64,000 nt of DNA from Kiritimatiellia bacterium (GTDB taxonomy: Bacteria; Verrucomicrobiota; Kiritimatiellia; RFP12; UBA1067), in the NCBI GenBank assembly GCA_017962315.1, contig JAGCVN010000042.1, positions 16,031-80,030 of the forward strand, in the 5' to 3' direction. Under the pieces are notes generated by a model. That model saw nothing but the letters and a program-made list of their open reading frames with translations, made no database searches and had not been told where the DNA came from. Numbering within the stretch: position 1 is the first letter of the stretch; every line of letters begins with the position of its first letter. Shown piece by piece: positions 1 to 61,972 of the stretch. The position numbers were made by a program, and so were the translations under genes.

Positions 1-1038
1 GGCCTCGGCCAGCGCGTGGTTGCGGATTTTCGACCGCCCGGAAAGCACTTTCTCGACCGTGAGCCCGCGGGGCAGGCCGCCCGGCGACGTAATTTCCACG
101 CGCGTGTCGTACACGGCGACGAAGATCGGCGCGTCATGTTCGAAATAGTTGCGATGAGTAAAGGCGTTGACCACGAGTTCGCGCAAGGCGTCCGGGGGAA
201 GTTCGTAGAGGTCCCTTCGCTGGATGCCCTCGAACACGCAGCCCATGTTGATCTTGGACAGGATGTACTTGTGCGCATCCTCGATCTGCTCGTAGATAGG
301 GCCGGTGAATTCGCGGCGGTCAACGAACACGGCCTTCGAATCCCCCTTGAACACGCCGCACTTCACGCGTGTCGCAAACGCCCTGTCGCCTGTCAGCAGC
401 GCATACGTGTTGGACGCAATCCAGCAGTTCCGCGACTTGGAAATGATGCCCCATTCCTGGAGTTGATTTGCCGTAATCTTCTTGACCGCTTTGCGCTCCG
501 ATTCGTCTCTCGCGTTTCTGCGCGCAATGCGATACATGTTGGCGCATAGCGCGGCGATGCGGGCATCGGTGATCTTCGCGTTTGGGCAGGGTTCGCTGTC
601 AAAACTTCGGCCTTCGGCCTCCAGTTCCAGTTCGTGTCGTGTTGCATCGTCGGCGCGTTGAGTCGTGGCGCCTACGCGGACATAGACCCCATCCTTGTCG
701 CCCTCCGCCTTGATGAAATACGGACATCGCGAACCTGCAAGCACGTCAAGGACGATGACCGATTTGCCATCCACATTCTCGATGCCGATATCGATCGGAA
801 CATGCGGCGAACAGGCGTTGCAGATGGAATTCGCTATGCCATCCATTTCCACGAACACCCTTGACTTGCCGATTCCGGTCACCGATCCATCGTTCGCAAT
901 GCCGAAAAGGACCGTGCCTCCCTTCCCATTCGCGAATGCGACCACCGTCTTCAAATACCTGATTCGCTCTTCGTTGGGCACGCGCTTGAATTCAAGATCA
1001 TACCCCTCACCTTGCCTGATTGCCTCGCGAATGTCCAT
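1..1038 (-). CDS. AlbA_2/Schlafen-like divergent AAA domain plus HATPase_c_4 (RecG-C-terminal-like) ATP-binding protein; N-terminal ~346 aa, C-terminus runs off the window start
   Basis: Minus-strand ATG at 1038, 3 nt after the stop of the upstream gene. My hand translation MDIREAIRQGEGYDLEFKRVPNEERIRYLKTVVAFANGKGGTVLFGIANDGSVTGIGK... matches the divergent-AAA 'FANxxGGxxxxGV' signature; open to position 1. The + strand ORF 16..549 is the GC-driven shadow of this gene. Confidence 0.6.
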   Translation of the reverse strand, partial: MDIREAIRQGEGYDLEFKRVPNEERIRYLKTVVAFANGKGGTVLFGIANDGSVTGIGKSRVFVEMDGIANSICNACSPHVPIDIGIENVDGKSVIVLDVLAGSRCPYFIKAEGDKDGVYVRVGATTQRADDATRHELELEAEGRSFDSEPCPNAKITDARIAALCANMYRIARRNARDESERKAVKKITANQLQEWGIISKSRNCWIASNTYALLTGDRAFATRVKCGVFKGDSKAVFVDRREFTGPIYEQIEDAHKYILSKINMGCVFEGIQRRDLYELPPDALRELVVNAFTHRNYFEHDAPIFVAVYDTRVEITSPGGLPRGLTVEKVLSGRSKIRNHALAEA

Positions 1039-1040
1039 AA

Positions 1041-2180
1041 CTACTGCCCCTCTTTCTTGCGGTTTCGCTTTTCCTGATTCATTTTGATTAGGTCGGCGTA
1101 GCGGAACGGCTCCTTGTGCGTCCAGTCCATGATGCTGCAGTAGAGGCCGTTGTGAAGGAAAATGCCGTCGAGGGGCTTCTTGAACTTGCAGCCGTGACAG
1201 GGCCTTGTCAAGGGAAGTTCCTTTTCGGGCTTAGCCAAAGACGTTTCGGGTTCTCCAAACAATTCCATTTGCACGGGCTTCGGCCGGGGCGGATCGAAGG
1301 GTTCGTCATGGCAGGTCATGGGGACGACGCATTTCAGGCCGTCCATCTGCCAGATATTCCAGCTGATGATGTCGGCAAGTTCCAGAAGCGTCTCGTGGTC
1401 CAGCGGTTCCGCCGTGCAGTAGAACTTGTAGTATTCCAGCATCGTGTAGAGGATGTTCTCGCGGGCGATGAGCAGATTGTCGCCCTGCCACTCGAAGCCG
1501 AGCGTGGCCTTAAGGGCGAGAAGGGCGTATTTCAGCCATTCGTCCGGTTTCGTGCCGACGTTCTCCGTGACGATGCGGAGCTTCCGGTCAAGGATGCCGA
1601 TGCGATTCGGCACTGGGATGACCTCGCCCGTGGTCGTATCGTAGCGGCTCACCAGAAACGGCCCCTCGCCGCAGCACATCTCCAGACAGCGGTATTTGAC
1701 GTAGTCCAGCCACGTGTGTTCCGGCGTGTCCGGGAACTCCACCTTGCCGGGGAAGCGCTTCCAGCCCTCGTCGCGGCTTCCCTCCGTGGTGAAGGGCGCC
1801 GGCTTGCGGTCGAACCAGGCGGCGTCGAACTCGTTAATCATGTTGTTGCATATCCACGACGGCGTGAAGACCTCCGCCTTCTTTTGGATGCGCTCCTTCT
1901 GCTCGGCCTTGCTCTTGTCCACGCGGGGACGGATGATCTTGTTTCCCGGACGGGAGATTACGTCGGCGTCGATCTCGTCCTGCATACACATCTTCTTGTC
2001 GAAAACAGATTCAAGGTGCTCATACCCATCTGTCATCCACATGATGTTCTTGCCGGTCGTCCGATCAGCAAGAAGGATGTCGAGGACATCGCGCGGAATA
2101 TCCGATTCAAGGATGTCCCGCGTGAAATCCGGGATTATCACATCGCGCGCAAGGGCGTTATCTGTCGGACGGTCGCTCAT
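1041..2180 (-). CDS. methyltransferase-like protein (gamma-class motif X 'EVFTPSWICNNM' and motif I 'LEMCCGEGPFLV' present, no NPPY/F motif IV; C-terminal Cys/His cluster CHGCKFKK...H..C)
   Basis: 379-aa ORF; the motifs were read from the translation. Stop is 3 nt before the next gene and the start abuts the 34-aa uORF, so it is operonic. Family identity not resolved. Confidence 0.45.
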   Translation of the reverse strand: MSDRPTDNALARDVIIPDFTRDILESDIPRDVLDILLADRTTGKNIMWMTDGYEHLESVFDKKMCMQDEIDADVISRPGNKIIRPRVDKSKAEQKERIQKKAEVFTPSWICNNMINEFDAAWFDRKPAPFTTEGSRDEGWKRFPGKVEFPDTPEHTWLDYVKYRCLEMCCGEGPFLVSRYDTTTGEVIPVPNRIGILDRKLRIVTENVGTKPDEWLKYALLALKATLGFEWQGDNLLIARENILYTMLEYYKFYCTAEPLDHETLLELADIISWNIWQMDGLKCVVPMTCHDEPFDPPRPKPVQMELFGEPETSLAKPEKELPLTRPCHGCKFKKPLDGIFLHNGLYCSIMDWTHKEPFRYADLIKMNQEKRNRKKEGQ

Positions 2181-2285
2181 TCACTTTGCCTTTTCGCCGC
2201 TGTCAAATAGACCTGCTTCTTCCCTGTTGTTCTGCAAAACGCGGTGAATCAGTTCGTCATGAACCTCGTCAAGTCGTATTCTCAT
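2181..2285 (-). CDS. 34-aa leading ORF MRIRLDEVHDELIHRVLQNNREEAGLFDSGEKAK; N-terminus resembles a ribbon-helix-helix beta-strand plus helix A
   Basis: Reverse complement of 2181..2285 translates cleanly. Its TGA is immediately followed by the ATG of the 1041..2180 gene. GAGGAAGG lies about 12 nt upstream. Too short for a confident call. Confidence 0.3.
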   Translation of the reverse strand: MRIRLDEVHDELIHRVLQNNREEAGLFDSGEKAK

Positions 2286-2304
2286 TTGTATTCCACGCCT
2301 TCCT

Positions 2305-2336
2305 CAAAATCCTCCGGCCCGTTTCCGGGCCGGAGG
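2305..2336 (-). terminator. GC-rich hairpin (11-bp stem CCTCCGGCCCG / CGGGCCGGAGG, GAAA loop) followed on the minus strand by AUUUUG; intrinsic-terminator-like or attenuator element
   Basis: Seen directly in sequence. Located between the predicted minus-strand promoter at 2422-2450 and the uORF start at 2285. Confidence 0.35.
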
Positions 2337-2415
2337 GCGGATCACACCCTAGACAAAGTTTCAACCCCCATGAAGAAGCAGGTTTCGCAATGTGCAAAAC
2401 CATATTCTCCACAAC
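2305..2415 (-). ncRNA. candidate ~110-nt small RNA delimited by the sigma70-like promoter and the terminator-like hairpin (alternatively a structured 5' leader of the cassette)
   Basis: Promoter and terminator geometry. The internal imperfect hairpin GGUUUUGC-ACAUU-GCGAAACC plus the terminal hairpin would give a two-stem RNA. No homology claim. Confidence 0.2.
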
Positions 2416-2421
2416 GGAGAT

Positions 2422-2450
2422 ATAATATCAAAATGCCGCCACTATGTCAA
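2422..2450 (-). promoter_or_regulatory. sigma70-like promoter TTGACA-N17-TATTAT on the minus strand
   Basis: Perfect -35 hexamer, 17-nt spacer, 5/6 -10 match, in an AT-rich patch between the cas7 stop and the cassette. Confidence 0.4.
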
Positions 2451-2558
2451 GCAGTCCAATTTCTTTTGTTAGGGAGTGTATGAGAGGGATAGACATGAGG
2501 ACGACGATATGCGATTTAGGAATTATTGACATTAAAAGTCCCAGGTCGCATTCGCATA

Positions 2559-3464
2559 TTACTTCACGACAACCGTGACACCAGCTGGCAGGGCGCCATC
2601 GGCCGGAACGTCCAACGTGTAGTCAGCGAACTTGCGGGGGACGGCGACGTCGGACTTCTTCTCAATCTTGACGAGGTCGAAGAGCTTGTGGGAGGGGGCG
2701 TTGCCGAGGGCGGAATCGTGCTTGAAGACGATGAGCTTCTGCGTCGCCATCATCCCGCGGGCGGCGGAATGATCCTGATCGAACATCCCGACGAGTGCCT
2801 CCCACAGGAGCGCGAGGTCCTCTTCCGAGAAGCCAGTCTGCTTGGCGAGCGCCGGGGAGACGAAGCCGTAGGCGACGTAAAGGCCGTAGGGAACGGTGTT
2901 CTTGCGGCCCATGGTGCGGTTGTCACCGCTCTGCTTCTCGGCTTCGGCCTCAGTCGCAACGGCCATGCGGGTAATGGAGTGCTCTGCTGTGACAACGGGA
3001 TCGACGGATCGGGCGAACGTGATCTGGACGGGACCGCGAACCTGTCCGGCATTGGCCCCTGTGGACATAACCGCACCAAATGTCCGGATGTCGAAGTAGA
3101 CCTGGCACATCTTGTTGCGGGCTCGGAAGACTTCTTCCCCCTGTCCCTGTCCGGTCTTGTTACGCTTCTTCCCATCGGCATCCGCCTTCGACAGGTCGAT
3201 TCCAAGGTCTGCGTACGCCTTCTCGATCTGCTGGTTGAGGATCGCCTTCTCCTTGACGAAGATGTCGTAACCGGGTTCCGTACCCTTAATGAGTAGGACG
3301 TAGTTGCGTACCTTGCGCTTGATGCAGACATCGGTGACGAGGCCTTCGCCCGTCTCAGTGTCGATGCGGGGGAGATTTCCGGCGTCGGGGTCGCCGTTGG
3401 GGTTGCCGTCCTTCACGTCAAAGAGAAGCATGAAGTCGTAGCGGTTCTTGAGTTCAGTAGCCAT
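2559..3464 (-). CDS. cas7: type I-C CRISPR-associated Cas7 (Csd2)
   Basis: [35 protein letters not shown]... is the characteristic Csd2/Cas7c N-terminal signature; 301 aa. Confidence 0.92.
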
Positions 3465-3494
3465 GGTGGGGTCTCCTTGTTCGTTGGTTAGTGA

Positions 3495-5261
3495 TCAGAG
3501 TGAAAGTTCTGTTTGAACGGTATCGTCGGATTCGGATGTCGACGCAGCATCGCCGACGCCGCTGTCCTTGGTTTTCCTGCCGACGAAGAAATCCTGCCGC
3601 TGGTGGTAGTAGCCGATGGCGAACATACCCTGGTCTTCCAGCGAAAGATGGGAGGGGAAGGCGGCGACGCTGGAAAGGATTTCGCCGATGAGCTCCTCGA
3701 AGAACGCTGTTTTCGGGAGCTTGGCGAGATGGTGGTTCTTGAGCCGCATCAGGTTGCCAAAGACGGCGGCCGGCGTGGCGGATGCCGAGGCGTAGAACCT
3801 GTCGCGGATGGTAGCGTTGATGCCGGGGTTGGCGGCCTGCTGGATGCGCTCCAGAACGGCGAAGAGTCGGCCAAGACGATAGCCGACATTGGGGTTGTCC
3901 TTGTCGAGACTCATGGCGAGTTTCCTTTCGGGGTTGAGGTTGCGGTTTATGAAAGCCTTGACGAGCTTGGCGCGAGGGTAAGTGACATCGCGTTCCGCCT
4001 TGATGCGGACAATGGCCGACGAAAGCAAGGTCGCGGGATAGGGCGTTCCTTCAAGGATGCTCCGCATGACGGCGCCGGCGAGATTGGGAGGAATGTTCGC
4101 TTTCCACTTTTGGTAGTCTTTGTTATGGAGCGCAAGCGAAAGCAGCAACTGCGTAAGGGAAAGATGCTCCTTGTCCTTTGGGCCATGGACGATGCGGAGG
4201 TTTTCGAACCAGTCCGCAAAGCGCCTCTCCATTTCCGCGACCGTCCCCTCGTGCCAAAAGCGGACGGAAATGCGCGCGGAATTGGGCGAGAGACCGAGAA
4301 CATAGAAGCGCGCGGTGCCGCCTTCGTGGGCATAGGCACCCGACCGAACGGAACCGAGGAGTCGCTCCACGGCATCAACGCCGCGATCGGGGTCGTCCTT
4401 CTGGGGTTCGCGGAAAAGGTCCGCAAATTCATCTTCAAGGGTACTCTTCTCCGAAGACCAGAAGACGGTCGTGGCATCGCCGACATACATCTTTTGCCGG
4501 GAACTAGCCAAAAGCGCATTGAGTGCTGTGGTATAGGCGAACTCGGCTTCTTGACCAACTGGAGAATTGTAGCTTTGCTCCCTCCCGAACGATTCCGCTG
4601 CATCCCAGTTGAATGAAATGAGACTTCCTCGGTTTTTATCGGTTCCCAATACGCCAACTATTTTGTGATGAGTTCGTGAAATGATAGCCCGGCTTCCCGT
4701 CACCAGACACACACCATCGGGGACTTCCCCAGTTGATGACAAATGCGCATTGTACGCTTGAACAAAGTCTCCTTCGCAAGGAACGGGTTTCTCATGTCCT
4801 GCAATTATGAAAGTAGCAACAGCCCCTGTCTGGATGTACTCAGACCAATTGCCGTCACCCTTCAATCGCTCCGTATCAAAATGTTCTGTCAAGAATCGTC
4901 GAACGGATGCGACGGAAGGTAGGTCGTCAGCAAACTGGTTGAGACGGGTCAAAAATAGTGTATGCTTTTTGTCTGCATCTGTTCCTTGCGCAACGCCTGG
5001 AAAAGCATACTCCGCTTTGTCCCAGAGAGTAAATGCGGCCGGATTTCTTGTGCGGACGACAGATTGAGGCACAAGAAATCGTTTCGCGATCTTTCTCTTG
5101 CCGACAATTTCGCGAGTATCCTCAATTCTTACGAATTGTCCGTCATCCGTTATGACGAACAAAAAAGGAATCTCCTTCCATTCCCACCCGAGCGGGGCGA
5201 TGCCAGAATCGGGGTCAGCGGCCTTGCGGTCGTAGTATTCCTTGAGAGCCTGGAGAATCAT
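3495..5261 (-). CDS. cas8c: type I-C CRISPR-associated Cas8c (Csd1) large subunit
   Basis: N-terminus MILQALKEYYDRKAAD... typical of Csd1; 588 aa. Its start overlaps the cas5 stop (ATGA). Confidence 0.9.
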   Translation of the reverse strand: MILQALKEYYDRKAADPDSGIAPLGWEWKEIPFLFVITDDGQFVRIEDTREIVGKRKIAKRFLVPQSVVRTRNPAAFTLWDKAEYAFPGVAQGTDADKKHTLFLTRLNQFADDLPSVASVRRFLTEHFDTERLKGDGNWSEYIQTGAVATFIIAGHEKPVPCEGDFVQAYNAHLSSTGEVPDGVCLVTGSRAIISRTHHKIVGVLGTDKNRGSLISFNWDAAESFGREQSYNSPVGQEAEFAYTTALNALLASSRQKMYVGDATTVFWSSEKSTLEDEFADLFREPQKDDPDRGVDAVERLLGSVRSGAYAHEGGTARFYVLGLSPNSARISVRFWHEGTVAEMERRFADWFENLRIVHGPKDKEHLSLTQLLLSLALHNKDYQKWKANIPPNLAGAVMRSILEGTPYPATLLSSAIVRIKAERDVTYPRAKLVKAFINRNLNPERKLAMSLDKDNPNVGYRLGRLFAVLERIQQAANPGINATIRDRFYASASATPAAVFGNLMRLKNHHLAKLPKTAFFEELIGEILSSVAAFPSHLSLEDQGMFAIGYYHQRQDFFVGRKTKDSGVGDAASTSESDDTVQTELSL

Positions 5262-6067
5262 TTGAAAACCTCCTCGGAGTCGGGATGCGGGACGATGATG
5301 ACGCCATCGACCATTTTGGGTCGGTAGAACATGGGCTTGATGTCCTTCAGATCGGAATAGTCCATGTCGTAGAGCATGAAGCCGAGGTCGCGCGTCTCGG
5401 AAATGGGGCGGTCCGGTTCCGCCTCGGGGTGCTTCACGAGGCGGATTTCCCGGCAGGAGAACTCGCGGCAGCCGAGGTAGGGGTGCATGAAATACTGGCC
5501 CTTGGTGGCGCGGCGGTCGAACATGGCGGCGTATTTCGCCTCCTTCTCGTCGGGCTTCGCCTCGGCTTGGCGGTATAACTCCACCTCATCGGCGTCGGCC
5601 AGCCATTCCGGGGGCGGATTGACGGCCGGGGAACGCTCCTCGGGCGGAATGAAGTCGAACTCGGCGTAGAGCCTGTAGCGGACATCGCGCAGAATGAGTC
5701 CTGCGCGCTGCTGGCGTGCGTCCTCTACAAAAATGCCATCCGAACGCGGGCTGGCGACGGCGGACACCTCGTTGCGGCGGACGGAGGTCCAGCGAATCGG
5801 GTTCATCACCTCGATCCGCGTGATGCGCCAGCGGATGGCGGGCTTCCAGAAGATCGCGCTGAAGACGCCGCGTGCGGCGGACGGCGTGATGACGTCGTAG
5901 CTCACGCGCTCGACCTTCATCTCGGGCCGCGTGAAGCAGGCGAAGTCGCTTGAAACGTCTAGGCAGAATCCTTGCCTATAAGTTCGATTGGCGACAACCG
6001 AAACAACTTGTAAAGACAGCATCCTTCTTTCGCCGCGCAACGGCGCGGCGTTTTCATAACCGCGCAT
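5258..6067 (-). CDS. cas5: type I-C Cas5 (Cas5d, pre-crRNA-processing subunit); start uncertain (ATG at 6067 or 6022; the ORF track extends to a TTG at 6088)
   Basis: ...DFACFTRPEMKVERVSYDVITPSAARGVFSAIFWKPAIRW... matches the Cas5d core (GDYACFTRPE...SY.V.TPSAARGI). The 4-nt overlap with cas8c is typical. Confidence 0.85.
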   Translation of the reverse strand: MRGYENAAPLRGERRMLSLQVVSVVANRTYRQGFCLDVSSDFACFTRPEMKVERVSYDVITPSAARGVFSAIFWKPAIRWRITRIEVMNPIRWTSVRRNEVSAVASPRSDGIFVEDARQQRAGLILRDVRYRLYAEFDFIPPEERSPAVNPPPEWLADADEVELYRQAEAKPDEKEAKYAAMFDRRATKGQYFMHPYLGCREFSCREIRLVKHPEAEPDRPISETRDLGFMLYDMDYSDLKDIKPMFYRPKMVDGVIIVPHPDSEEVFK

Positions 6068-6090
6068 GGTTGTGCGCGGAAGAAGCAAAC

Positions 6091-6160
6091 GTTGTTTTCA
6101 AGTTGTTCAAGTTGTTTTCAGAAACTTACCCTCATCTACATTCCCGCGTGCAGCGCGGGC
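6091..6160. promoter_or_regulatory. cas3-cas5 intergenic element: triple tandem direct repeat GTTGTTTTCAA-GTTGTTCAA-GTTGTTTTCAG followed by hairpin CCCGCG-TGCAG-CGCGGG
   Basis: Seen directly in the 101-nt gap between the cas3 stop (6190) and the cas5 start. Candidate operator or internal promoter region for cas5-cas8c-cas7. Confidence 0.3.
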
Positions 6161-6189
6161 GGGGGCTTTCATGTGGGTCCTTTCGTTGT

Positions 6190-7710
6190 TCAAATGATGT
6201 TGTCCTCTATGGAGAGGCCGTCGCGAAACAAATCAAGGCCGAAACGTTCGCTGTAGGCGGACGGCATCGTCTGGACGAAGATGCCGGATGGAATGTCGGG
6301 CTTTTTGGGGACGCAAAGTTCCTCGACAAGGCCCTTTTCAATCAATTCGGCGAGCTTTTTCTTTGGGACATTCACGGTGAAGCGCTGTAGACGGCGCATA
6401 ATGTCGCGTTTCGGTCCTGCGGCGCGAAGCGATGCGATGAGAGCGTCGCTGCCTCCATAGCGGACGATGACGGCGGCCTGTGCCGAGTCGTCGATCATCT
6501 GGAAGGCTGCGGCGGCCTCGCGGAACTGGTAATGCATGGGTTCCGCGATTCTTCGCGTCGTCCCGTTGCGGAATTCCAGCGGTACGGGTACGCCAAGCCA
6601 CGACTCGAATTCGACGCCGAGATTTTGGATTCGATGGTGCAACGCCCGGAAATAGTCGGGGAAACTGCTTACTTCATCGGGATCGACGCCTCCGGGACGG
6701 TCTAGGAGGTCGCTCATGGCGTATTCCCCCTGGAGCAATTCACCCTTGGGGGATTGCTCCGGCGGCATGAAAACGATGACGCGACCCGGCTCCGGCAGAA
6801 GCCCTTCCCGGTTACACCGTCCAGCAGACTGCGCGATGGAGGCGAGACCCGTGAACGCACGATAGACCACGGGAAAGTCGATGTCCACCCCGGCCTCGAC
6901 AAGCTGGGTGCTGATTACGCGGACGGGTTCGCCGTCCGCCAGCTTGCGTTTGATTTCGCCGATGACGCGCGAGCGGTGGGCGCCGCACATGCTTGCGGAG
7001 AGATGGATGGTGTCTTCCGGCATTTTGTCAAAGAGGGCGCGGCAGTCGCGGCGCGTGTTTACGACGCAGAGGACACGCTCGTGGCCGCACAATTCCGCGG
7101 CGATCTCGTCCCACGTTTTCCGGGTGTTTCGATCAACTGGGAATTCGATGCGTACCCTTTTCAGCCGATGGTACAGGTCAAGGGACGGAGGGGCGATTTC
7201 CCGTATCGAGGCCGTATCAATGCCGGGGAGGTTCAACTGGGTGGCCGTTGAAAGGACGAACGAAACCCTGTAGTGAGATGCGAGCTGTCGCATCGCCTCG
7301 GCGCATGGGAGGAGAAGCTTGGAGGGCAGCAACTGCACCTCGTCAAGGATCACGACGCTTTCGGCGATGTTGTGGAGCTTGCGGCACCGGCTCGACTTGC
7401 AGGCGTACAGGGACTCGAAGAACTGGACGGACGTCGTGACAATGACCGGCGCGTCCCAGTTCTCGGAGGCGAGGCGAGACTGTCTCGTCTCCTTGTCGGG
7501 ATCGAAGTTAGAATGGTGCTCCAGCACATTGTCCGGGCCAAGGATGTCGCGTAGAACATCGGCCGTCTGCTCGATGATGGACGTGTAGGGAATCACGTAG
7601 ATGATGCGCTTGAGTCCATGGCGCAAGGCGTGTCGGAACGCGAACGCCGTTCCCGAAAGCGTCTTTCCCCCGCCCGTCGGGACGGTCAGCGAAAAGAGGC
7701 CTGGCGGCAA
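6190..7710 (-). CDS. cas3: Cas3 helicase part (SF2 helicase; Walker A 'PTGGGKT', DEVQ box); TTG-initiated ORF lying in frame 23 codons downstream of the HD-domain ORF
   Basis: MPPGLFSLTVPTGGGKT...VVILDEVQLLP...; 506 aa. Continuous reading frame with 7780..8445 except for one TGA. Confidence 0.85.
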   Translation of the reverse strand: MPPGLFSLTVPTGGGKTLSGTAFAFRHALRHGLKRIIYVIPYTSIIEQTADVLRDILGPDNVLEHHSNFDPDKETRQSRLASENWDAPVIVTTSVQFFESLYACKSSRCRKLHNIAESVVILDEVQLLPSKLLLPCAEAMRQLASHYRVSFVLSTATQLNLPGIDTASIREIAPPSLDLYHRLKRVRIEFPVDRNTRKTWDEIAAELCGHERVLCVVNTRRDCRALFDKMPEDTIHLSASMCGAHRSRVIGEIKRKLADGEPVRVISTQLVEAGVDIDFPVVYRAFTGLASIAQSAGRCNREGLLPEPGRVIVFMPPEQSPKGELLQGEYAMSDLLDRPGGVDPDEVSSFPDYFRALHHRIQNLGVEFESWLGVPVPLEFRNGTTRRIAEPMHYQFREAAAAFQMIDDSAQAAVIVRYGGSDALIASLRAAGPKRDIMRRLQRFTVNVPKKKLAELIEKGLVEELCVPKKPDIPSGIFVQTMPSAYSERFGLDLFRDGLSIEDNII

Positions 7711-7779
7711 TTCCGCCGCCTGTTCGCAGGCGGCGCGGATTCCCGCGCGGATGCGGTTTACGTCGGTGTCCGGGGCGGT

Positions 7780-8445
7780 TCACTGTTTTTCGTCCAGATG
7801 CGCGAAGAACGCATCGGCAAGGGCGGAAAGTGGCTGTCCGAAGGAGCGGTTTGCGCTTTGCGCCGGATCCATGAACGCCTCCGTGTCGAGAAAGTCGGCA
7901 TCGACGAGACTCGAGTACATCATGCGAATCCAGAACGACAGAGAAGAGTCGTCGCGGCCGAACGGGAAAGGCGGTGCTAGCCGTTCGCGGAGCCAGTCGG
8001 CCTCATGGGACGCGATCCACTCGCGAACGGGTGGTTCCGCCAAAACGGCAGCGTCCTCATTCAGCCGAACGGCAAGAGCGCCATTTGGCGTGTCCCCGCC
8101 GGACCAGTCGGGGAGGCCGGCATGGTGGCCGGCGATGCAGTAGGACAGAGCCGTGCCAATGCCGCCGGCATTTTGGGCCAGCCAGCACGCCCCCGCACCG
8201 GAATGCGAATGGTCGCCAAAGTCCAGATCGGCATCCTCGACGCCGTTGCAGCGGCGCAAATAGGACTGGAACGCGCTCCTCGCCTTTCCTGTGTCATGCG
8301 TTTCGCCTTCCAGCCGTCCATGTTTGCCACTTGCAAATGAATCGGCAAACGCTTCTGACAATTCAGCGACAGCCTTACTATGAGATCGCAAGGTCTGCCA
8401 TTCTGTCATCGGTGCGTTTTCTCGGCTATGAGCAAAAAAATCCAT
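7780..8445 (-). CDS. cas3: Cas3 HD nuclease domain part (HD-phosphohydrolase motifs H..HD..H..H..D)
   Basis: FFAHS...ETHDTGKA...GDHSHSG...AGHHAGLPD...LVDADFL; 221 aa, ending at a TGA that is in frame with the helicase ORF. Confidence 0.8.
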   Translation of the reverse strand: MDFFAHSRENAPMTEWQTLRSHSKAVAELSEAFADSFASGKHGRLEGETHDTGKARSAFQSYLRRCNGVEDADLDFGDHSHSGAGACWLAQNAGGIGTALSYCIAGHHAGLPDWSGGDTPNGALAVRLNEDAAVLAEPPVREWIASHEADWLRERLAPPFPFGRDDSSLSFWIRMMYSSLVDADFLDTEAFMDPAQSANRSFGQPLSALADAFFAHLDEKQ

Positions 8446-8618
8446 TTCCCCTCTTTTGATTGAGAACGGTACTATTATTTCACGGGGATGGAGATTTGTC
8501 TAGTACTATTTTTGATTATTTATATGTAAAATTTATAATTTAAGAGATATATGTATATTTCTCTATACATACCGCGAATATTCCGATATACTGACCTGTA
8601 GTTCAAGGAGAGGATACG
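8446..8618. promoter_or_regulatory. AT-rich divergent promoter region between cas3 (-) and the XRE/ImmA-like regulator (+), containing an imperfect palindrome TATGTAT-ATTTCTCT-ATACATA (~8545-8572)
   Basis: A sharp GC drop (largely A/T over ~120 nt) in an otherwise 60-65% GC genome. The palindrome was read directly. Confidence 0.4.
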
Positions 8619-9680
8619 ATGTTTCCGAAGGGTGATTTCAAAGTTGGCGAGAGGATTCGCGCTTGGCGCAAAAAGCGCAATATGATCCAGAAAGAGCTTG
8701 CCGCAGCGATCGGAATGGATGTTACGCAGCTGTGGTCGATCGAAAAGGATCGCAACAGTCCGTCCGTGCGCACGCTTGAACGCATTGCGCGGGCGTTACG
8801 TGTTCGTGTCCCGGAACTTCTAGAGCTACCGTCCGTGGATGATTCGATGGGGGTACTTTCTGTGTCGGACAACAGCTGGTCCGCCTGTTTGAACGTGGAA
8901 TGCGATGATTTACGTCGGCTATCCAGACCTGAACAGGGAACCGACCTTGCAGAAGGAGAGGTGCGCAGATTACTTTCAGAGTTGTCGGAAGCGATTCAAA
9001 CTGAGACGAAGCATCAGACGGAGATGCAGACCTCGCTCCCGCTTCAGTTTCCGATCGTCAAGAGCGAGGCCGGGGCGGAGCAGCTTGCACGAGCGGTCAG
9101 GGCGCACTGCGATATCGGCTCTGCCATTATTCGTGACGTGCAGATCCTTTTCGAAACATACGGGGTACGTGTTCTTGACACGCGATTTTCGAACGGGGTT
9201 GAGGCCGTGACGTTCTACAGCGCGATCCAACGAAACTTTACGGTTTTCCTTTCCGCCACTCTTTTGCAGAAACCATGGCGGAGGGATTTCATATTCCTGT
9301 CCGAAATCGGGCGGATGTTCCTATTTGTTTCCGGCTTGTTTGAAACCTATCGGGAATCCAAAATCGGTCGTCGTTTCGTGCATCACTTTGCCGCGGCTTT
9401 CTTGCAACCGGAACAGACGATTCGTGCGACGGTTTACAGCCTTCGCGTGAAACCGGACGACTGGACATACGAGCTTCTGTTGCGCATGAAAGAACGCTTT
9501 GGGGTATCGGCCGAGGCATTCGCGATACGATTGAAGGAACTGGCTCTTATCTCCCGGCGTAAGTTCGAAGTGTTCAAAAAGCAGATCATACAATACTACG
9601 CATCTCACAACTACGATGAACCCATGGCAAAAGAGCGCAGACCCGGTAGGGCATTTGACCTCGCCGCGCTCTCAACATGA
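8619..9680 (+). CDS. XRE-family HTH transcriptional regulator with C-terminal ImmA/IrrE-like (COG2856/DUF955-type) domain; no clean HExxH seen
   Basis: N-terminal IRAWRKKRNMIQKELAAAIGMDVTQLWSIEKDRNSPSVRTLERIARAL is a canonical XRE HTH. The C-terminal ~230 aa has the architecture of ImmA-type anti-repressor peptidases, but the metal motif looks degenerate (RFVHHFAAAF). Confidence 0.55.
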   Translation: MFPKGDFKVGERIRAWRKKRNMIQKELAAAIGMDVTQLWSIEKDRNSPSVRTLERIARALRVRVPELLELPSVDDSMGVLSVSDNSWSACLNVECDDLRRLSRPEQGTDLAEGEVRRLLSELSEAIQTETKHQTEMQTSLPLQFPIVKSEAGAEQLARAVRAHCDIGSAIIRDVQILFETYGVRVLDTRFSNGVEAVTFYSAIQRNFTVFLSATLLQKPWRRDFIFLSEIGRMFLFVSGLFETYRESKIGRRFVHHFAAAFLQPEQTIRATVYSLRVKPDDWTYELLLRMKERFGVSAEAFAIRLKELALISRRKFEVFKKQIIQYYASHNYDEPMAKERRPGRAFDLAALST

Positions 9681-10252: not shown

Positions 10253-11275
10253 CTAGAACGCGGAGATGACCAGCTGGTTCGTGGTGTAGTGGCTGGTTTC
10301 TTTCTGGATGGCGAGCTTCCAGGCGGCGACGTCGAGATAATCCTGCCAACCATGACTCCATTCCAGTTCCGTTCCGATGAAGAGATGGAGGGGGACGAGG
10401 AGCTGGTCGGCGAGGTGCTTTTCGCACGCTTTGCCGGATTTCACGAAGTCGCGGATTTGGCGGACGACCTCATTTGCCACGGACTTGCGCGACTTGCCGT
10501 ATGTGCCGATGGCGGAGATGACGATCGTCGCACGCTCGTAACGGAGCCGCGTGCAACAGTAGTTTCCCGGTCCAAAGGCATCGACCTCACGCACAATGCG
10601 TTCCAGAGCGAGGTCACGCATCTGATTACCAACGATGCCGACTTCCGCCTCGGCAATCGAACGCGGAATGTGCGAGACAACGCCCTCGACGGTGCCACCT
10701 AGGTATGCGCCGAGGTCGGTCAAATCGTAGCACGCAGGGCACTTCGACTCGTCGTACGGCCAGACACGCAGTTTCACGACGCCGCCAGCGGCGGGGTAGA
10801 AACCGCACTGCTCCAGTTCCGCCTCCACGTGCGCGCCCATCCGCCGTAGTTCGGGAAGGTACGTTTCCGAGAAAAACTCCCAGATCGGCGCGAACGAGAC
10901 GTGCGTGCCACCCGTGATCGTGACCGTGGACGGCGTGTCCGCCCGCAGGAGGACGGGGATGACCGTCTGCGCGACGAGCGTGACGGAACCAGCCGTGCCG
11001 ATGTCGAACTGGTAGGTACCACCCTTGATTGCGCCCGGCTTGAACAAAAGACGCATGGAGCCGACCTCGTCGCCCTCCACCTGCGCACTGCAGATCTGCG
11101 CGACCGCACGAACGCATGTGAGGTGTTGGCGCTTGAGGCCGGGCTTGTCGCGTTTCACGCGGATGTTCAGCATCTCGAATGGTTTGCCGTAGGCGGCGCT
11201 CAACGCGAGCGAGGTGCGGAGGATCTGCCCGCCACCCTCGCCCTGCGAGCCGTCGATGGTGATTGGATTATCCAT
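10253..11275 (-). CDS. rtcA: RNA 3'-terminal phosphate cyclase RtcA
   Basis: MDNPITIDGSQGEGGGQILRTSLALSAAYGKPF... is the RtcA N-terminal signature; 340 aa. Confidence 0.9.
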   Translation of the reverse strand: MDNPITIDGSQGEGGGQILRTSLALSAAYGKPFEMLNIRVKRDKPGLKRQHLTCVRAVAQICSAQVEGDEVGSMRLLFKPGAIKGGTYQFDIGTAGSVTLVAQTVIPVLLRADTPSTVTITGGTHVSFAPIWEFFSETYLPELRRMGAHVEAELEQCGFYPAAGGVVKLRVWPYDESKCPACYDLTDLGAYLGGTVEGVVSHIPRSIAEAEVGIVGNQMRDLALERIVREVDAFGPGNYCCTRLRYERATIVISAIGTYGKSRKSVANEVVRQIRDFVKSGKACEKHLADQLLVPLHLFIGTELEWSHGWQDYLDVAAWKLAIQKETSHYTTNQLVISAF

Positions 11276-11321
11276 TCTCGCTTCCTTTCTTGCGCGGACG
11301 AAAACGCCCGCGTACAGGACA

Positions 11322-12527
11322 CTATCCCTTCAGCGAGGCGAGGGGGACGAGGCGAACGAGCGGCTCAACGAGGTCGAGCTCGGAGGCGATCACGTCCTCG
11401 ATGTCCTTGTACGCCTGCGGTGCCTCGGAGAGATCGAGTCGGCCCTTCGCCTTGCCGAAGCCCTTGTACTTGTGCCACCGCTCGCACACGATGCCCTCCA
11501 TCGCCTTGTCGCACTCCTCCACGGTGAGCGTGGTGGAGGCCGCGATGCGGCTCATGCGCCGCCCCGCGCCGTGCGAGCAGGACATGAACGACTCGGGGTT
11601 GCCGAGTCCGCGCACGATGTACGAGGCCGTGCCCATCGATCCTGGGATGATGCCGATCTCGTCGAGCTTCGCCGAGGTCGCGCCCTTGCGGTGCACGCAC
11701 ACCTTCTCGCCGAAGTGCTCCTCGAACACGGCGTAGTTGTGGTGGATGTCGATCGTGCGAATGAAGTTCGCGTTCGACACGAACTCGGCGAGCGTCGCCT
11801 TCATCACCTCCATCATGCGCCGACGGTTCTCCTTCGCGTAGCGGAGGGCGAAGAGCATGTCGGTGAAGTAATCGTGTCCCGCCGGCTCCTCAATGGGGAG
11901 GAAGGCGAGATCCGTGTCCGGCAACGGTACGCGGAACCGCTCGCACATCTTCGCCGCGATACGGTGGTAGTGCTCCTCGATACGCTTGCCGAGGTTGCGT
12001 GAGCCGGAGTGGATCATGAGCCACACCCGGTTTTTGTCGCTCTTCTGCAGCTCGATGAAGTGGTTGCCGCCGCCGAGTGTGCCGAGATTCATGCGGTCGA
12101 GCTTGGACGGCCAGAGGCTGGAGCGCATGCCGTTGTGCGCGGTGTATTCCTCGAAGCCCTCCCAGTCCTGCGTGACGCGGTGCGACTCGCCCTCCCCCAC
12201 GGGGATGCGCTCCTTGAGCTTCTCCTGGAAGGCGCGGCGGAACGGCATCTCGGCGAACGCCTCGGCGGGGACGTCCGTTTCCGTGGCGATCATGCCGCAG
12301 CCGATGTCCACACCGACGGCGGCGGGGATCACGGCGTCTTTCGCCGCCACCACGCCACCGATGGGCATGCCGTAGCCCTGGTGCGCGTCTGGCATTAACG
12401 CCACATGGTGTACAAGCACCGGATGGTGCGCGAGGTTCACCGCTTGCTGGACGGCACCCTCCTCGCAGTTCTCACACCAGCTCTTCACGGGCATCGTGTA
12501 CCCGACCTCAAACTTTTCCCATTTCAT
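11322..12527 (-). CDS. rtcB: RNA-splicing ligase RtcB
   Basis: MKWEKFEVGYTMPVKSW...GGGNHFIELQ...HSGSRNLG conserved RtcB blocks; 401 aa. Confidence 0.92.
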   Translation of the reverse strand: MKWEKFEVGYTMPVKSWCENCEEGAVQQAVNLAHHPVLVHHVALMPDAHQGYGMPIGGVVAAKDAVIPAAVGVDIGCGMIATETDVPAEAFAEMPFRRAFQEKLKERIPVGEGESHRVTQDWEGFEEYTAHNGMRSSLWPSKLDRMNLGTLGGGNHFIELQKSDKNRVWLMIHSGSRNLGKRIEEHYHRIAAKMCERFRVPLPDTDLAFLPIEEPAGHDYFTDMLFALRYAKENRRRMMEVMKATLAEFVSNANFIRTIDIHHNYAVFEEHFGEKVCVHRKGATSAKLDEIGIIPGSMGTASYIVRGLGNPESFMSCSHGAGRRMSRIAASTTLTVEECDKAMEGIVCERWHKYKGFGKAKGRLDLSEAPQAYKDIEDVIASELDLVEPLVRLVPLASLKG

Positions 12528-59183: not shown

Positions 59184-59533
59184 GATTCCTTGACACGAAT
59201 ATCCTTGTCTATGCCGCAAGTCGGCAGAATTTGAAAAAACGCGATATTGCGTTGCATATTGTGCGCCATGCGCTTGAGGAAAGCAACAATGGCGTAATCT
59301 CGCTTCAAATCCTGCAAAAATTCACGACTGTCATGTTGAAGCGCTCGTTGGCGGCGGACGAGCAGATTGAAGGATACTACACGTATTTCTATAAACTTGT
59401 TAGAACTGAAGTGACATCCGATATGCTTCGTGATGCAATTCATATCAGAAAGGAATACGGCACTCAGTATTACGATGCGGCATCGTGTCCGTTAACCCGT
59501 TCAAGGCGAGGGATGAGAAATGAAGCCCGATAA
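59180..59533 (+). CDS. vapC: PIN-domain toxin VapC with atypical/truncated C-terminus
   Basis: MRFLDTNILVYA (Asp5 motif), ...YYDAAS (third acidic motif) present; the usual C-terminal T.D.DF block is replaced by CPLTRSRRGMRNEAR and overlaps the methyltransferase start. Confidence 0.7.
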   Translation: MRFLDTNILVYAASRQNLKKRDIALHIVRHALEESNNGVISLQILQKFTTVMLKRSLAADEQIEGYYTYFYKLVRTEVTSDMLRDAIHIRKEYGTQYYDAASCPLTRSRRGMRNEAR

Positions 59534-61070
59534 CCATAGAATCGTACTGGTCGGCACGTACCGGCATGAGAACGAGGCGTGGATACGCGAACGCAGACTC
59601 TACAATCTGCCTCTGCCGGAGTCTATTAGCCACAAAGCACGCAAAGGTCGCAAAGAAGATGGGGCGGTCGCCCTACCGTTCCACCGGAACATTGGCGGTA
59701 TCGTGCTGTTTGCCGAGGGACATTCCAACTTTGCGTTCAAGGCGAAGTTCAAGGATGTCGTCGATGGCGAATGGTTGAAAAAGAACGGCTATTCGCTTGC
59801 GGCTAAACCGCATGGCGAGAAGTATGCCCTCTATGAACTGTGCGAGGAATCCACGCCCGCGAAGTTGTTAGGGCGAAAGACGGCCGAGGTGTTCGTCTGC
59901 TCGTCGCGCTGTCCGTGCGTGAAGATCGACGAGGCGTTCTATTCCAAACCGTACCCCGTCACCGGCGGCAAGTCGATGCCCTACGTTTTTGACTGCCTCA
60001 AACCCTACTTCCGCAAGTGGAAATCGGCTACGACGTTCGATCCTGTTCAGGAGGATTTCTTCCAGAACAGCTTTGGTTTTGATTACGGTTTGCAGGTCGC
60101 ACGAGGGATTGTGGAGGAAGCGAAACGGGACGGGGCGTTGACCTGCGTTGAAATATGCGCGGGTGCGGGGGGACAGGCTCTTGGACTTGACAAGGCGGGG
60201 TTCAAGCATGTCGCGCTTGTCGAATACGAAAAAGAGTATTGCGATGTCCTCCGTGCGAACAAGCCAGGGTGGAATGTGATTTGCGGTGACGTGCATGAGT
60301 TTGACGGGACGCCATATCAGGGTGTGGATCTGCTTGCCGGCGGTGTTCCGTGTCCGCCGTTTTCAGTCGCGTCAAAGCAACTTGGAGAAGACGATGAAAG
60401 GGATTTGTTTCCGCAGGCGATAAGGCTCATATCGGAGATTCGTCCGCGCGCCGTGATGCTGGAAAACGTGCGCGGATTCCTCGATCCGAAGTTTGACGCA
60501 TACAGGAACAACATTCTGAATGCGATACGTCGCCTTGGTTACCGTGTGGATATCAAGCTCCTTCAGGCAAACGATTTTGGCGTTCCGCAGATTCGTCCGC
60601 GCGTTGTTATCGTAGGCATACGCAAGGATGAGGGATGTTCGTTCAGTTATCCCGAGGCGAATCGCAGGGCCGCACCTTCCGTCGGAGAGGCGTTGAGGGA
60701 TATGATGGGAGCGAATGGATGGAGAGGTCTTGATACTTGGGTTGCGCGAGCAAACAAAATTGCCCCGACTATTGTGGGGGGGAGCAAGAAGCACGGCGGA
60801 CCGGATCTTGGCCCGACACGGGCACGGCGGGCGTGGGATGAACTTGGTGTTGACGGACTTGGGGTCGCCAACGAGCCGCCGGCGAGGGACTTTGTTGGGA
60901 ATCCGAAACTTACGAAAGAAATGATAGCGAGGATTCAGGGTTTCCCGTCGAATTGGAATTTCGGCAAGCGCAAGACCGCCGCATGCCGTATGATTGGAAA
61001 TGCATTTCCGCCGCCGGTTGCTCGGGCAGTTGGCGTCCAGATCAGAAAGGTGTTGAGTAATGAAGAATAA
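59520..61070 (+). CDS. DNA (cytosine-5)-methyltransferase with ~190-aa N-terminal extension of unknown function
   Basis: Motif I EICAGAGGQALG, motif IV GGVPCPPFS (PC), motif VI LENVRGF, motif VIII QANDFGVPQ.RPR. The N-terminal domain (MKPDNHRIVLVGTYRHENEAW...) is unassigned. Confidence 0.85.
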   Translation: MKPDNHRIVLVGTYRHENEAWIRERRLYNLPLPESISHKARKGRKEDGAVALPFHRNIGGIVLFAEGHSNFAFKAKFKDVVDGEWLKKNGYSLAAKPHGEKYALYELCEESTPAKLLGRKTAEVFVCSSRCPCVKIDEAFYSKPYPVTGGKSMPYVFDCLKPYFRKWKSATTFDPVQEDFFQNSFGFDYGLQVARGIVEEAKRDGALTCVEICAGAGGQALGLDKAGFKHVALVEYEKEYCDVLRANKPGWNVICGDVHEFDGTPYQGVDLLAGGVPCPPFSVASKQLGEDDERDLFPQAIRLISEIRPRAVMLENVRGFLDPKFDAYRNNILNAIRRLGYRVDIKLLQANDFGVPQIRPRVVIVGIRKDEGCSFSYPEANRRAAPSVGEALRDMMGANGWRGLDTWVARANKIAPTIVGGSKKHGGPDLGPTRARRAWDELGVDGLGVANEPPARDFVGNPKLTKEMIARIQGFPSNWNFGKRKTAACRMIGNAFPPPVARAVGVQIRKVLSNEE

Positions 61071-61941
61071 CGCAGCTAAACCGATCTTTGTTGAAGCGCG
61101 TGACCAGTTCCATCGGGCACTTGTACGGCGTGGTGTGTTGGTTGTCGATAAAGCAGGTGTCCCGTCAAACAGCGATAAGGACAATCGGCCTTCATGCGCC
61201 ATAGGGGGTCTCATAGCGGCAAGACTAAAGGCAAAATGTGGAGTAAAGCTTCCCGCGCAAACAGCAGGGAGTATATTCGAGGAACTTGTTTGCGATTTTC
61301 TAAATGCGACATTTCCGCAACTCCAGAATCTGCGCCCAGGGCAATGGAACATCTTCAATCTCGGAAACAACAATACCGTCAAGACCTCAAGTTTCGTTCA
61401 ATACGAACATCTGGCGCATCTTGCCAAGGTGATACATTCTGACAGTCAGTTGGCAACGATGCTTGGCAATGGTTACGTCGTCGCACCTGACATAGTTATA
61501 TCAAGAGTGCCTTGTGAAGACGAAGAGATTAATTCTGTAAGGCGTTTCGTCGATGGAACCGTCGCCTTGAAGGCGGACATCCGACGGAAGAATAACCCGT
61601 TGGAAATTATGCACGCTTCTGTGTCCGCCAAATGGACGATGCGGAGTGATCGTGCGCAGAACAGTCGCACAGAAGCGTTAAACCTTATACGGAACAGGAA
61701 AGGGCGAGTCCCCCATATCGTTGTTGTGACGGGAGAACCGTTGCCATCAAGACTCGCTTCACTTGCACTTGGAACTGGTGATATTGACTGCATTTACCAT
61801 TTTGCGCTTCACGAGTTGATTGATGCTGTTAGAGAATATGGTAAAGATGGACGAGAGGATGTCATTGAACTTCTTGATATGATGGTCAATGGTAAGTGCT
61901 TGAAGGACATCTCCGATTTGCCGCTTGATTTGGCTTGTTGA
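61060..61941 (+). CDS. probable type II restriction endonuclease, Cfr10I/Bse634I/NgoMIV-like (PD...(D/E)xK variant)
   Basis: 293 aa immediately after, and overlapping, the m5C methyltransferase. ...VAPDIVISR...VALKAD...SAKWTMRSDR... resembles the catalytic blocks of the RCCGGY/GCCGGC family. Similarity judged from memory, not searched. Confidence 0.5.
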   Translation: MKNNAAKPIFVEARDQFHRALVRRGVLVVDKAGVPSNSDKDNRPSCAIGGLIAARLKAKCGVKLPAQTAGSIFEELVCDFLNATFPQLQNLRPGQWNIFNLGNNNTVKTSSFVQYEHLAHLAKVIHSDSQLATMLGNGYVVAPDIVISRVPCEDEEINSVRRFVDGTVALKADIRRKNNPLEIMHASVSAKWTMRSDRAQNSRTEALNLIRNRKGRVPHIVVVTGEPLPSRLASLALGTGDIDCIYHFALHELIDAVREYGKDGREDVIELLDMMVNGKCLKDISDLPLDLAC

Positions 61942-61972
61942 AGCATGGCGCATAAAAAAGGATTCTGTGGAC

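Follow-up and report, generated by a model that had tools for sequence, protein, structure and literature searches.

A type I-C CRISPR-Cas locus, probably truncated after cas7, beside a restriction-modification-like operon in a chromosomal defence island

What has become of a cas operon that carries the effector genes of its type and is followed by unrelated genes at the place where adaptation genes and a repeat array are expected? This question is raised by a type I-C CRISPR-Cas locus at the left end of a 64,000-nucleotide (nt) stretch of DNA from a Kiritimatiellia bacterium, which is called the window below. The canonical type I-C (Dvulg) order is cas3-cas5c-cas8c-cas7c-cas4-cas1-cas2-array. 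On the minus strand of the window, the order is cas3, cas5c, cas8c, cas7c, a gap of 378 nt, a gene for a methyltransferase-like protein of 379 amino acids (aa) and a gene for an AlbA_2/GHKL protein. An initial annotation, made from the letters of the window, had proposed a Cascade/Cas3 module paired with a new effector cassette and, as an alternative, a decaying system. The analysis reported here points to a truncated I-C locus that lies at one end of a chromosomal defence island beside an unrelated restriction-modification-like operon and genes of the Lamassu and Shedu systems. We assign this reading a probability of roughly 0.7.

The DNA to the left of position 1 was read from a near-identical metagenome scaffold, L001 (European Nucleotide Archive ERZ28653423 scaffold_413, 88,843 bp), which differs from the first 12 kb of the window by one mismatch (99.99% identity) and in which window position 1 corresponds to position 12180. 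Together, the 64-kb window and a flank of about 17 kb (approximately 10 kb on the left and 7 kb on the right) cover about 81 kb of the 88.8-kb contig. Numbers with the prefix L denote related or matching loci and contigs. The comparison set comprised 80 related I-C loci, and Cas3 was compared with that of 65 relatives.

The cas operon and its missing parts

Matches to hidden Markov models and their coordinates confirmed the order cas3 (HD, then helicase)-cas5-cas8c-cas7 on the minus strand, as the initial annotation had read it, and the full length that it had ascribed to Cas5, Cas8c and Cas7 was supported by profiles aligned almost from end to end (Table 1). The matches to Csd1, Cas5c, Csd2, cas3_HD and cas3_core all exceed the curated cut-offs of Pfam and NCBIfam; the signature effector genes of type I-C are thus present.

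Neither cas4, cas1 nor cas2 was detected in the window or in L001 by tblastn with the Cas4, Cas1 and Cas2 proteins of the relative L005 as queries. Additionally, when Cas1 of the closest relative was used as query, none of the best 120 clusters (≥68% identity) was recorded on the 88,843-bp scaffold_413. Arrays were sought as repeats of 32-37 nt ending in ATTGAAAC. No array was found in the 64-kb window by TRF, Rfam at gathering thresholds, a direct-repeat scan or an nhmmer profile built from the I-C repeats of 44 relatives, for which the repeats of L005 served as positive control (E 1e-6). The same profile gave no I-C repeat in the flanks of L001 and L094. The absence of cas4-cas1-cas2 and of an array that had been noted for the window was therefore borne out, and the 10 kb of extra left flank, where the missing parts might have followed directly beyond position 1, contained neither. 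Within the 378-nt gap, a mini-array or degenerate repeat of the I-C type was considered and rejected: GGGGGTTGAAAC / GGTTGAAAC at 2366-2358 resembles the ATTGAAAC repeat tail, and the match of 9 nt (nhmmer E 96) is at chance level. The 11-bp GC hairpin in this gap (Table 1) is not an I-C repeat either, as the profile yielded nothing but this tail match.

Related loci indicate what the locus may have looked like before. Of the 67 whose DNA extends 2 kb or more past cas7, 65 keep cas1, and most of them also have cas4, cas2 and an array that starts 2-3 kb after cas7. The closest relative, L106, whose Cas3 is about 87-89% and whose Cas7 is 95% identical to that of the window, has the order divergent HTH-M78 gene, cas3, cas5, cas8c, cas7, cas4, cas1 (HTH, helix-turn-helix). 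DNA similarity between L106 and the window extends from the HTH-M78 gene to window position 2619, which lies 60 nt before the cas7 stop codon, and ends there; synteny is thus lost at the end of cas7. In L104 (15438-21731) and L106 (8203-10405), cas4 and cas1 are present, and no cas2 or I-C repeat occurs in the DNA read after cas1. The gene after cas1 in L106 contains MPNHFHALI, which we take to be a motif of HUH/IS200-like transposases.

The second lesion is inside cas3 and had not been reported in the initial annotation. An in-frame TGA at 7780-7782 interrupts the single reading frame of this gene within the HD-helicase linker, where the translation reads ...AHLDEKQ*TAPDTDVNRIRA... This codon splits the gene into an HD part of 221 aa and a helicase part of 529 codons in all, of which 506 aa can be read from the next start, a TTG located 23 codons after the TGA. 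The frame of Cas3 was continuous at this position in 65 of 65 relatives. The closest Cas3 relatives, L106 and L005, have an arginine at the position of the stop, and L106 reads DEKQRTATDTDVNRIRA. The simplest and most likely origin of the stop would be a transition from CGA (Arg) to TGA. Two long contigs are on record with the shortened HD product. Both Cas3 domains are present and their conserved residues are kept, yet the gene is split by the TGA and does not encode an intact fused Cas3. A second case of a broken cas3, in L104 (P0207, 576 aa), was rejected, as the frame is continuous there and the gene caller had picked an internal start.

Table 1. Genes and signals identified from the left end of the window to the gene divergent from cas3.
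Feature	Window coordinates	Strand	Evidence
HTH_3 + Peptidase_M78 (ImmA/IrrE-like) gene, divergent from cas3	8619..9680	+	Pfam E 3e-13, 2e-5; PADLOC RmrA-like
cas3 (HD nuclease + SF2 helicase)	8445..6190	-	TIGR01596 cas3_HD, TIGR01587 cas3_core
cas5c (Cas5d), full length, start codon uncertain	about 6067..5258	-	TIGR01876 E 4e-63, 213 bits, profile 1-202/203
cas8c (Csd1), full length	5261..3495	-	TIGR01863 E 3e-155, 518 bits, profile 1-587/588; Pfam Cas_Csd1
cas7c (Csd2), full length, last cas gene	3464..2559	-	TIGR02589 E 3e-122, 407 bits; Cas7 profile 1-281/284
Predicted sigma-70-like promoter of the restriction-modification-like operon	2450..2422	-	TTGACA, 17 nt, TG-TATTAT; 11/12 matches plus extended -10; consensus match only
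Perfect GC hairpin of 11 bp, CCTCCGGCCCG-GAAA-CGGGCCGGAGG, then ATTTTGAGG	2336..2311	-	In predicted 5' leader, downstream of promoter
34-aa open reading frame abutting the methyltransferase-like gene	2285..2181	-	No family match
379-aa methyltransferase-like gene, first conserved gene of its operon	2180..1041	-	PADLOC MTase_II PDLC03390 E 3e-95, profile 3-324/327
AlbA_2 (Schlafen) + GHKL ATPase gene, first 346 of 512 codons in the window	1038..1	-	SLFN_AlbA_2 E 4e-22, HATPase_c_4

The divergent HTH-M78 gene is also found upstream of cas3 in L104/L105 and L106/L107 (47-49% identity; positions 8029-9102 in L104 and 1128-2201 in L106). In five more distant loci (L004, L005, L019, L022, and L026) it is co-directional with cas3 and about 30% identical. 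It is a conserved neighbour in this I-C lineage and may be a regulator of the cas operon.

Variation between strains was seen in cas8c. The sister contig L002, from another sample, has an in-frame deletion of 30 bp at window 5078-5107, by which 10 residues are lost, and is otherwise identical to the window across cas5-cas8-cas7. An apparent variation of L002 and L003 inside cas7 was traced to a scaffold gap filled with Ns, which leaves the cas8c deletion as the real difference.

The junction of cas7 and cas4 was found to be occupied in several relatives. A gene of about 250-260 aa stands directly after cas7, and before cas4 where the region was read, in 6 of the 80 related I-C loci (L005, 11146-11928; L016, 11030-11788; L009, L018, L029, and L057); in L005 and L016 it encodes a 23S_rRNA_IVP four-helix-bundle and a topoisomerase-type zinc-ribbon domain. 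Judged by this gene, the site between cas7 and cas4 looks like a hotspot of insertion in the clade. In L104, cas4 is preceded by an unknown gene of 406 aa and separated from cas1 by two RlaP nucleotidyltransferase genes. In L016 (10001-19488), two complete I-C effector modules (cas3-cas5-cas8c-cas7 twice) stand in tandem and are followed by a Fic gene and cas4.

The operon next to cas7 and the defence island

The genes that follow cas7 belong to an operon that continues to the left of the window. The initial annotation had described a co-directional operon of three genes. The adjacency of the methyltransferase and AlbA_2 genes stood, and the three-gene unit did not, as the operon runs on past position 1, where the AlbA_2/GHKL gene is followed by a gene for a helicase-methylase of 1375 aa that overlaps it by 4 nt in L001.

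The helicase-methylase matches the PADLOC model REase_MTase_IIG with 1058 bits (profile 12-1359/1359) and combines a ResIII helicase (residues 163-354) with an Eco57I-type N6-adenine methylase (residues 1010-1119) in one chain. Its N-terminal 180 residues gave no Pfam match at E≤5; a GIY-YIG/T5orf172-like N-terminus had been an impression by eye, for which Pfam gave no match, and is not claimed. The full-length AlbA_2 protein of 512 aa, as encoded on L001, contains PF04326 (E 6e-22), then PF13749 (E 1.5e-22) and a C-terminal winged HTH (HTH_11). Its description as an AlbA_2/Schlafen-like ATPase agrees with the domains that Pfam detected in the window.

The methyltransferase-like protein of 379 aa has no Pfam match. 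The methyltransferase motifs that had been read in it were found again, and the PADLOC match in Table 1 agrees with them. Specifically, it contains a motif X of the gamma class (EVFTPSW), a motif I (LEMCCGEGPF) and a Cys/His cluster formed by C290, C328, C331, H343, and C348. Across 69 homologues, both motif X (EVFTPSW) and motif I (LE..CGE.PF) are invariant. These proteins share no conserved NPPY-type catalytic motif IV, and the position after the fourth strand reads EWQGDN. An AlphaFold model reached a predicted local distance difference test (pLDDT) score of 89.6, and all fold matches in the PDB were non-significant (best E 0.26), including PglX/BrxX, LlaGI, BsaXI, DrdV, and MmeI. Sequence searches with the 379-aa and 1375-aa proteins found no matching solved structure. 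The 379-aa family counts at least 8000 homologues and is named "restriction endonuclease subunit M" by NCBI.

Translocation, methylation and target recognition would be the tasks of the 1375-aa protein. The 379-aa protein would be an accessory or second-strand subunit; from its motifs, it may act as a second methylase, as an S-adenosylmethionine-binding accessory or as a nuclease partner. The AlbA_2/GHKL protein would be an optional add-on.

In eight independent contexts, a gene of the 379-aa family is followed by a ResIII+Eco57I protein of about 1340-1410 aa, and in three of the eight an AlbA_2 gene stands between them. The 379-aa homologues of L084, L087, and L090 (79%, 84%, and 62% identity) are followed directly by a ResIII(+Eco57I) protein of 1379-1401 aa, and in L097 and L100-L102 (87% and 85% identity) an AlbA_2/GHKL gene of 500 aa is inserted between the pair, as in the window. 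The pair also occurs on annotated plasmids of Enterococcus faecium and Bifidobacterium longum; on the latter, the ResIII+Eco57I protein is split into two genes separated by IS256. No cas gene was present among the called or annotated genes of the eight contexts, for which 4-10 kb of upstream DNA was available in four, and about 0.3-1.2 kb in L097, L100, L101, and L102. Conversely, a homologue of any of the three cassette genes was found in 0 of the 80 related I-C loci. The co-occurrence test thus identified the cassette as a common stand-alone module with no preferential association with Cas. A pairing with Cascade as an effector, which the initial annotation had proposed, is therefore unsupported.

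The 378 nt described as a spacer with its own promoter and a hairpin do contain both, as listed in Table 1. They extend from cas7 to the methyltransferase-like gene and include the 34-aa reading frame, which begins 273 nt after cas7 and had been placed outside the spacer. The predicted 5' leader (window 2170-2420, minus strand) folds into three hairpins with a minimum free energy of -89 kcal/mol (z = -3.9). Between a promoter-like site and the start codon, L100-L102 have a GC hairpin, TTCCGCCGGAATTCGGCGGAA, that is unrelated in sequence to the leader of the window. The promoter and the structured leader belong to the neighbouring operon and not to the cas locus. The resemblance of the 34-aa reading frame to ribbon-helix-helix proteins did not hold up: neither Pfam (even at E≤5) nor NCBIfam nor PADLOC gave a family match, and no homologue was found upstream of the homologous operons in L084, L087, and L090. 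It is probably not a conserved gene. The gap was also aligned with the DNA upstream of homologous operons, which is unconserved and uninformative for mapping the junction.

Beyond the 1375-aa gene, L001 encodes LmuA (Cap4 nuclease) and LmuB of Lamassu, SduA of Shedu, a 52-aa open reading frame, and DUF1016/YhcG. The cargo after the helicase-methylase varies by locus and consists of Lamassu and Shedu, SMODS and SLATT, AIPR, T5orf172, or unknown genes. The variable block ends at the DUF1016/YhcG gene (L001, 16815-21140; L084, 15300-20226; L087, 9545-14403; L090, 15295-18778; L097, 6913-11277), and in L084 and L087 YhcG is flanked by two copies of a coding motif of about 50 aa (…WYKDGKLTPHGRQMAKFLDRAFPAEKVDEWG…), one on each side. 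This arrangement suggests that the block between helicase-methylase and YhcG is a hotspot of recombination or insertion.

On the other side of the cas operon, just past the HTH-M78 gene and at the edge of the defence island, RtcA (RNA 3'-phosphate cyclase) and RtcB (RNA ligase) are encoded at window 10253-12527 on the minus strand. The right part of the window and the 7 kb beyond it contain housekeeping genes (ProS, HisS, PFOR, and TGT) and a separate C5-methylase/NgoMIV-type system. The latter is a second restriction-modification system at window 59520-61950 on the plus strand, in which a 516-aa C5 DNA methylase precedes a 293-aa NgoMIV-type restriction enzyme. The locus is assigned to the chromosome, because the remainder of the window is housekeeping DNA.

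Disabled remnant or working effector module

Taken together, these results can be arranged as a sequence of events. In the ancestral locus, the order cas3-cas5c-cas8c-cas7c-cas4-cas1-(cas2)-array would have been preceded by a divergent HTH-M78 gene. A deletion or replacement event would have cut off this canonical I-C locus right after cas7, and the adaptation genes and the array would have been replaced by an unrelated defence block with its own promoter and leader, in the order methyltransferase-like gene, AlbA_2/GHKL gene, 1375-aa helicase-methylase gene, LmuA/LmuB, SduA, and DUF1016/YhcG. The nonsense codon in the linker of cas3 would add to the disabling. As there is no local source of guides and Cas3 is broken, the I-C module is most likely a disabled remnant, and the disabling was probably recent.

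Several observations weigh against this reading and need to be considered with care. The proteins of the window keep 145 of 145 (Cas3), 63 of 64 (Cas5), 65 of 66 (Cas8c), and 119 of 119 (Cas7) positions that are conserved at ≥95%. With 392 of 394 such positions kept in total, there is no decay in the cas genes beyond the one stop; the decaying system considered in the initial annotation thus gained a nonsense codon in cas3 and no further sign of decay. The ratios of nonsynonymous to synonymous substitution rates (dN/dS) relative to L106 are 0.15, 0.11, 0.21, and 0.08 for Cas3, Cas5, Cas8c, and Cas7, and the synonymous divergence, which differs between the genes, is about 0.5-1.3 per site. With L104 as outgroup, nonsynonymous and synonymous changes numbered 59:140 on the branch of the window and 60:151 on that of L106 (Fisher p = 0.83). 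Since decay is lacking and dN/dS is low, the truncation and the nonsense mutation would both be recent relative to this synonymous divergence, unless the effector still has a use. Furthermore, the absence of an array applies to about 81 kb of one contig and not to the whole genome; the ends of scaffold_413 (88,843 bp) outside this coverage measure about 7 kb on the left (1-6987) and 1.8 kb on the right (87018-88843), and a distant array is possible. Since the stop sits in the linker at which Cas3 is naturally divided into two proteins in other type I systems, a two-piece Cas3 is conceivable. On the side of the neighbouring operon, restriction-modification activity is predicted from domains and motifs, and the small subunit has no canonical NPPY motif.

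The same observations feed the alternative that the effector module still functions in trans, which we consider unlikely. Cascade (Cas5c, Cas8c, and Cas7c) would then be loaded with CRISPR RNAs from a distant array, possibly that of a second I-C locus, and Cas3 activity would come from rare read-through of the TGA or from HD and helicase pieces that are translated separately. Such a function would explain the strong purifying selection, the lack of a nonsynonymous excess on the branch of the window and the retention of all catalytic positions, as counted among the conserved ones. Effector-only modules exist in the clade, as the tandem modules of L016 precede the only cas4 seen before the end of that contig, and about 12% of the cas clusters in complete genomes are distant or orphan, with no CRISPR array within 20 kb (Bernheim et al., 2019, PMC7145637). 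The stop in the HD-helicase linker and the TTG start 23 codons on would also suit a two-piece Cas3, but no clear ribosome-binding site precedes the TTG when the sequence is read by eye, and Cas3 is fused in each of the 65 relatives. No array or repeat lies within about 81 kb, and the 10-aa in-frame deletion in Cas8c of L002 hints at tolerated damage.

A broader version, in which two separate proposals are joined, is quite doubtful as a whole. The I-C effector module of this small sub-lineage, which the divergent HTH-M78 gene marks, would be kept by selection without local adaptation genes or array, with guides encoded elsewhere, perhaps as a Cascade-only binder that is poor in Cas3 and uses the HTH-M78 protein as a switch. 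Separately, the methyltransferase-like protein and the helicase-methylase, with or without the AlbA_2/GHKL protein, may form a widespread defence family, so far uncharacterised, to which variable cargo reaching as far as YhcG is anchored.

It is very improbable that faulty metagenome assembly, for instance a chimeric join, produced the stop codon and the cas7-cassette junction. The data are indeed metagenome assemblies, and L002 has a run of Ns inside cas7 (window 2807-2833) beside an alignment gap of 33 bp, and L003 begins at window 2806, which shows that this spot was difficult to assemble. Against this, the junction is spanned by at least four records besides the window, from different samples or runs (L001, L002, L003, and L096), the truncated HD product occurs on two long contigs, and the window and L001, which differ by 1 base in 12,000, have the same stop. 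A functional pairing of Cascade/Cas3 with the methyltransferase-like protein and the Schlafen-like ATPase, as a new effector combination in place of adaptation, is hardly credible: adjacency and shared orientation in one strain are all that speak for it, and against it stand the cassette's own strong predicted promoter, its membership in an operon with the 1375-aa helicase-methylase, its eight contexts with no cas gene called or annotated, its absence from 80 of 80 related I-C loci and the broken cas3.

Significance and comparison with known systems

With truncation as the preferred reading, the locus is ordinary and of low novelty, and holds no new Cas-linked system. It serves as a caution in two respects: adjacency within a defence island does not amount to functional coupling, and a cas operon that lacks an array can hide a single nonsense codon. 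It would also provide a dated snapshot of the loss of a CRISPR locus, with a clean cut after cas7 and one stop in cas3 ahead of other decay. Two minor leads emerged: the HTH-M78 gene as a companion of this I-C lineage, and the operon of methyltransferase-like protein and helicase-methylase, which is widespread and unstudied.

The 1375-aa protein resembles Type IIG/Type ISP-like enzymes, of which LlaGI and LlaBIII have been solved, in that a ResIII helicase precedes an Eco57I-type methylase and the PADLOC Type IIG model is matched end to end. It differs from enzymes of the LlaGI type in that it shows no sequence match to the solved structures and its N-terminal 160 residues have no family match. 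Furthermore, it is always paired with a separate methyltransferase-like protein of about 280-400 aa (about 540 aa in some cases) without NPPY, which LlaGI-type enzymes do not need.

Schlatpases combine an SLFN/AlbA_2 domain with a GHKL ATPase in one supradomain, are widespread in defence islands and undergo exchange with restriction-modification proteins; tRNA is the substrate that the Schlafen domain of SLFN-Argonautes cleaves (bioRxiv 10.64898/2026.05.29.728809). The AlbA_2 protein described here shares the order PF04326, PF13749 with them and is likewise encoded in a defence island adjoining restriction-modification genes. In contrast to Schlatpases with an Argonaute, it is a stand-alone protein of 512 aa that ends in a winged HTH and lacks an Argonaute core, and its likeness to them is in domain architecture.

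Like other distant or orphan cas clusters, the cas genes of the window lie more than 20 kb from any array on the DNA read, where the choice between "distant" and "orphan" depends on the rest of the genome. They differ from such clusters in the missing adaptation module and the nonsense codon in cas3. Compared to canonical type I-C, no cas4, cas1, cas2 or repeat array is present on the DNA read and cas3 is interrupted by a TGA, whereas the order of the effector genes, their full length and the fused HD-helicase architecture of Cas3 are the same. The likeness is closest to L106, the nearest relative, with which the window shares the divergent HTH-M78 gene and sequence identities of 79-95% in Cas3, Cas5, and Cas7 and of 63% in Cas8c.

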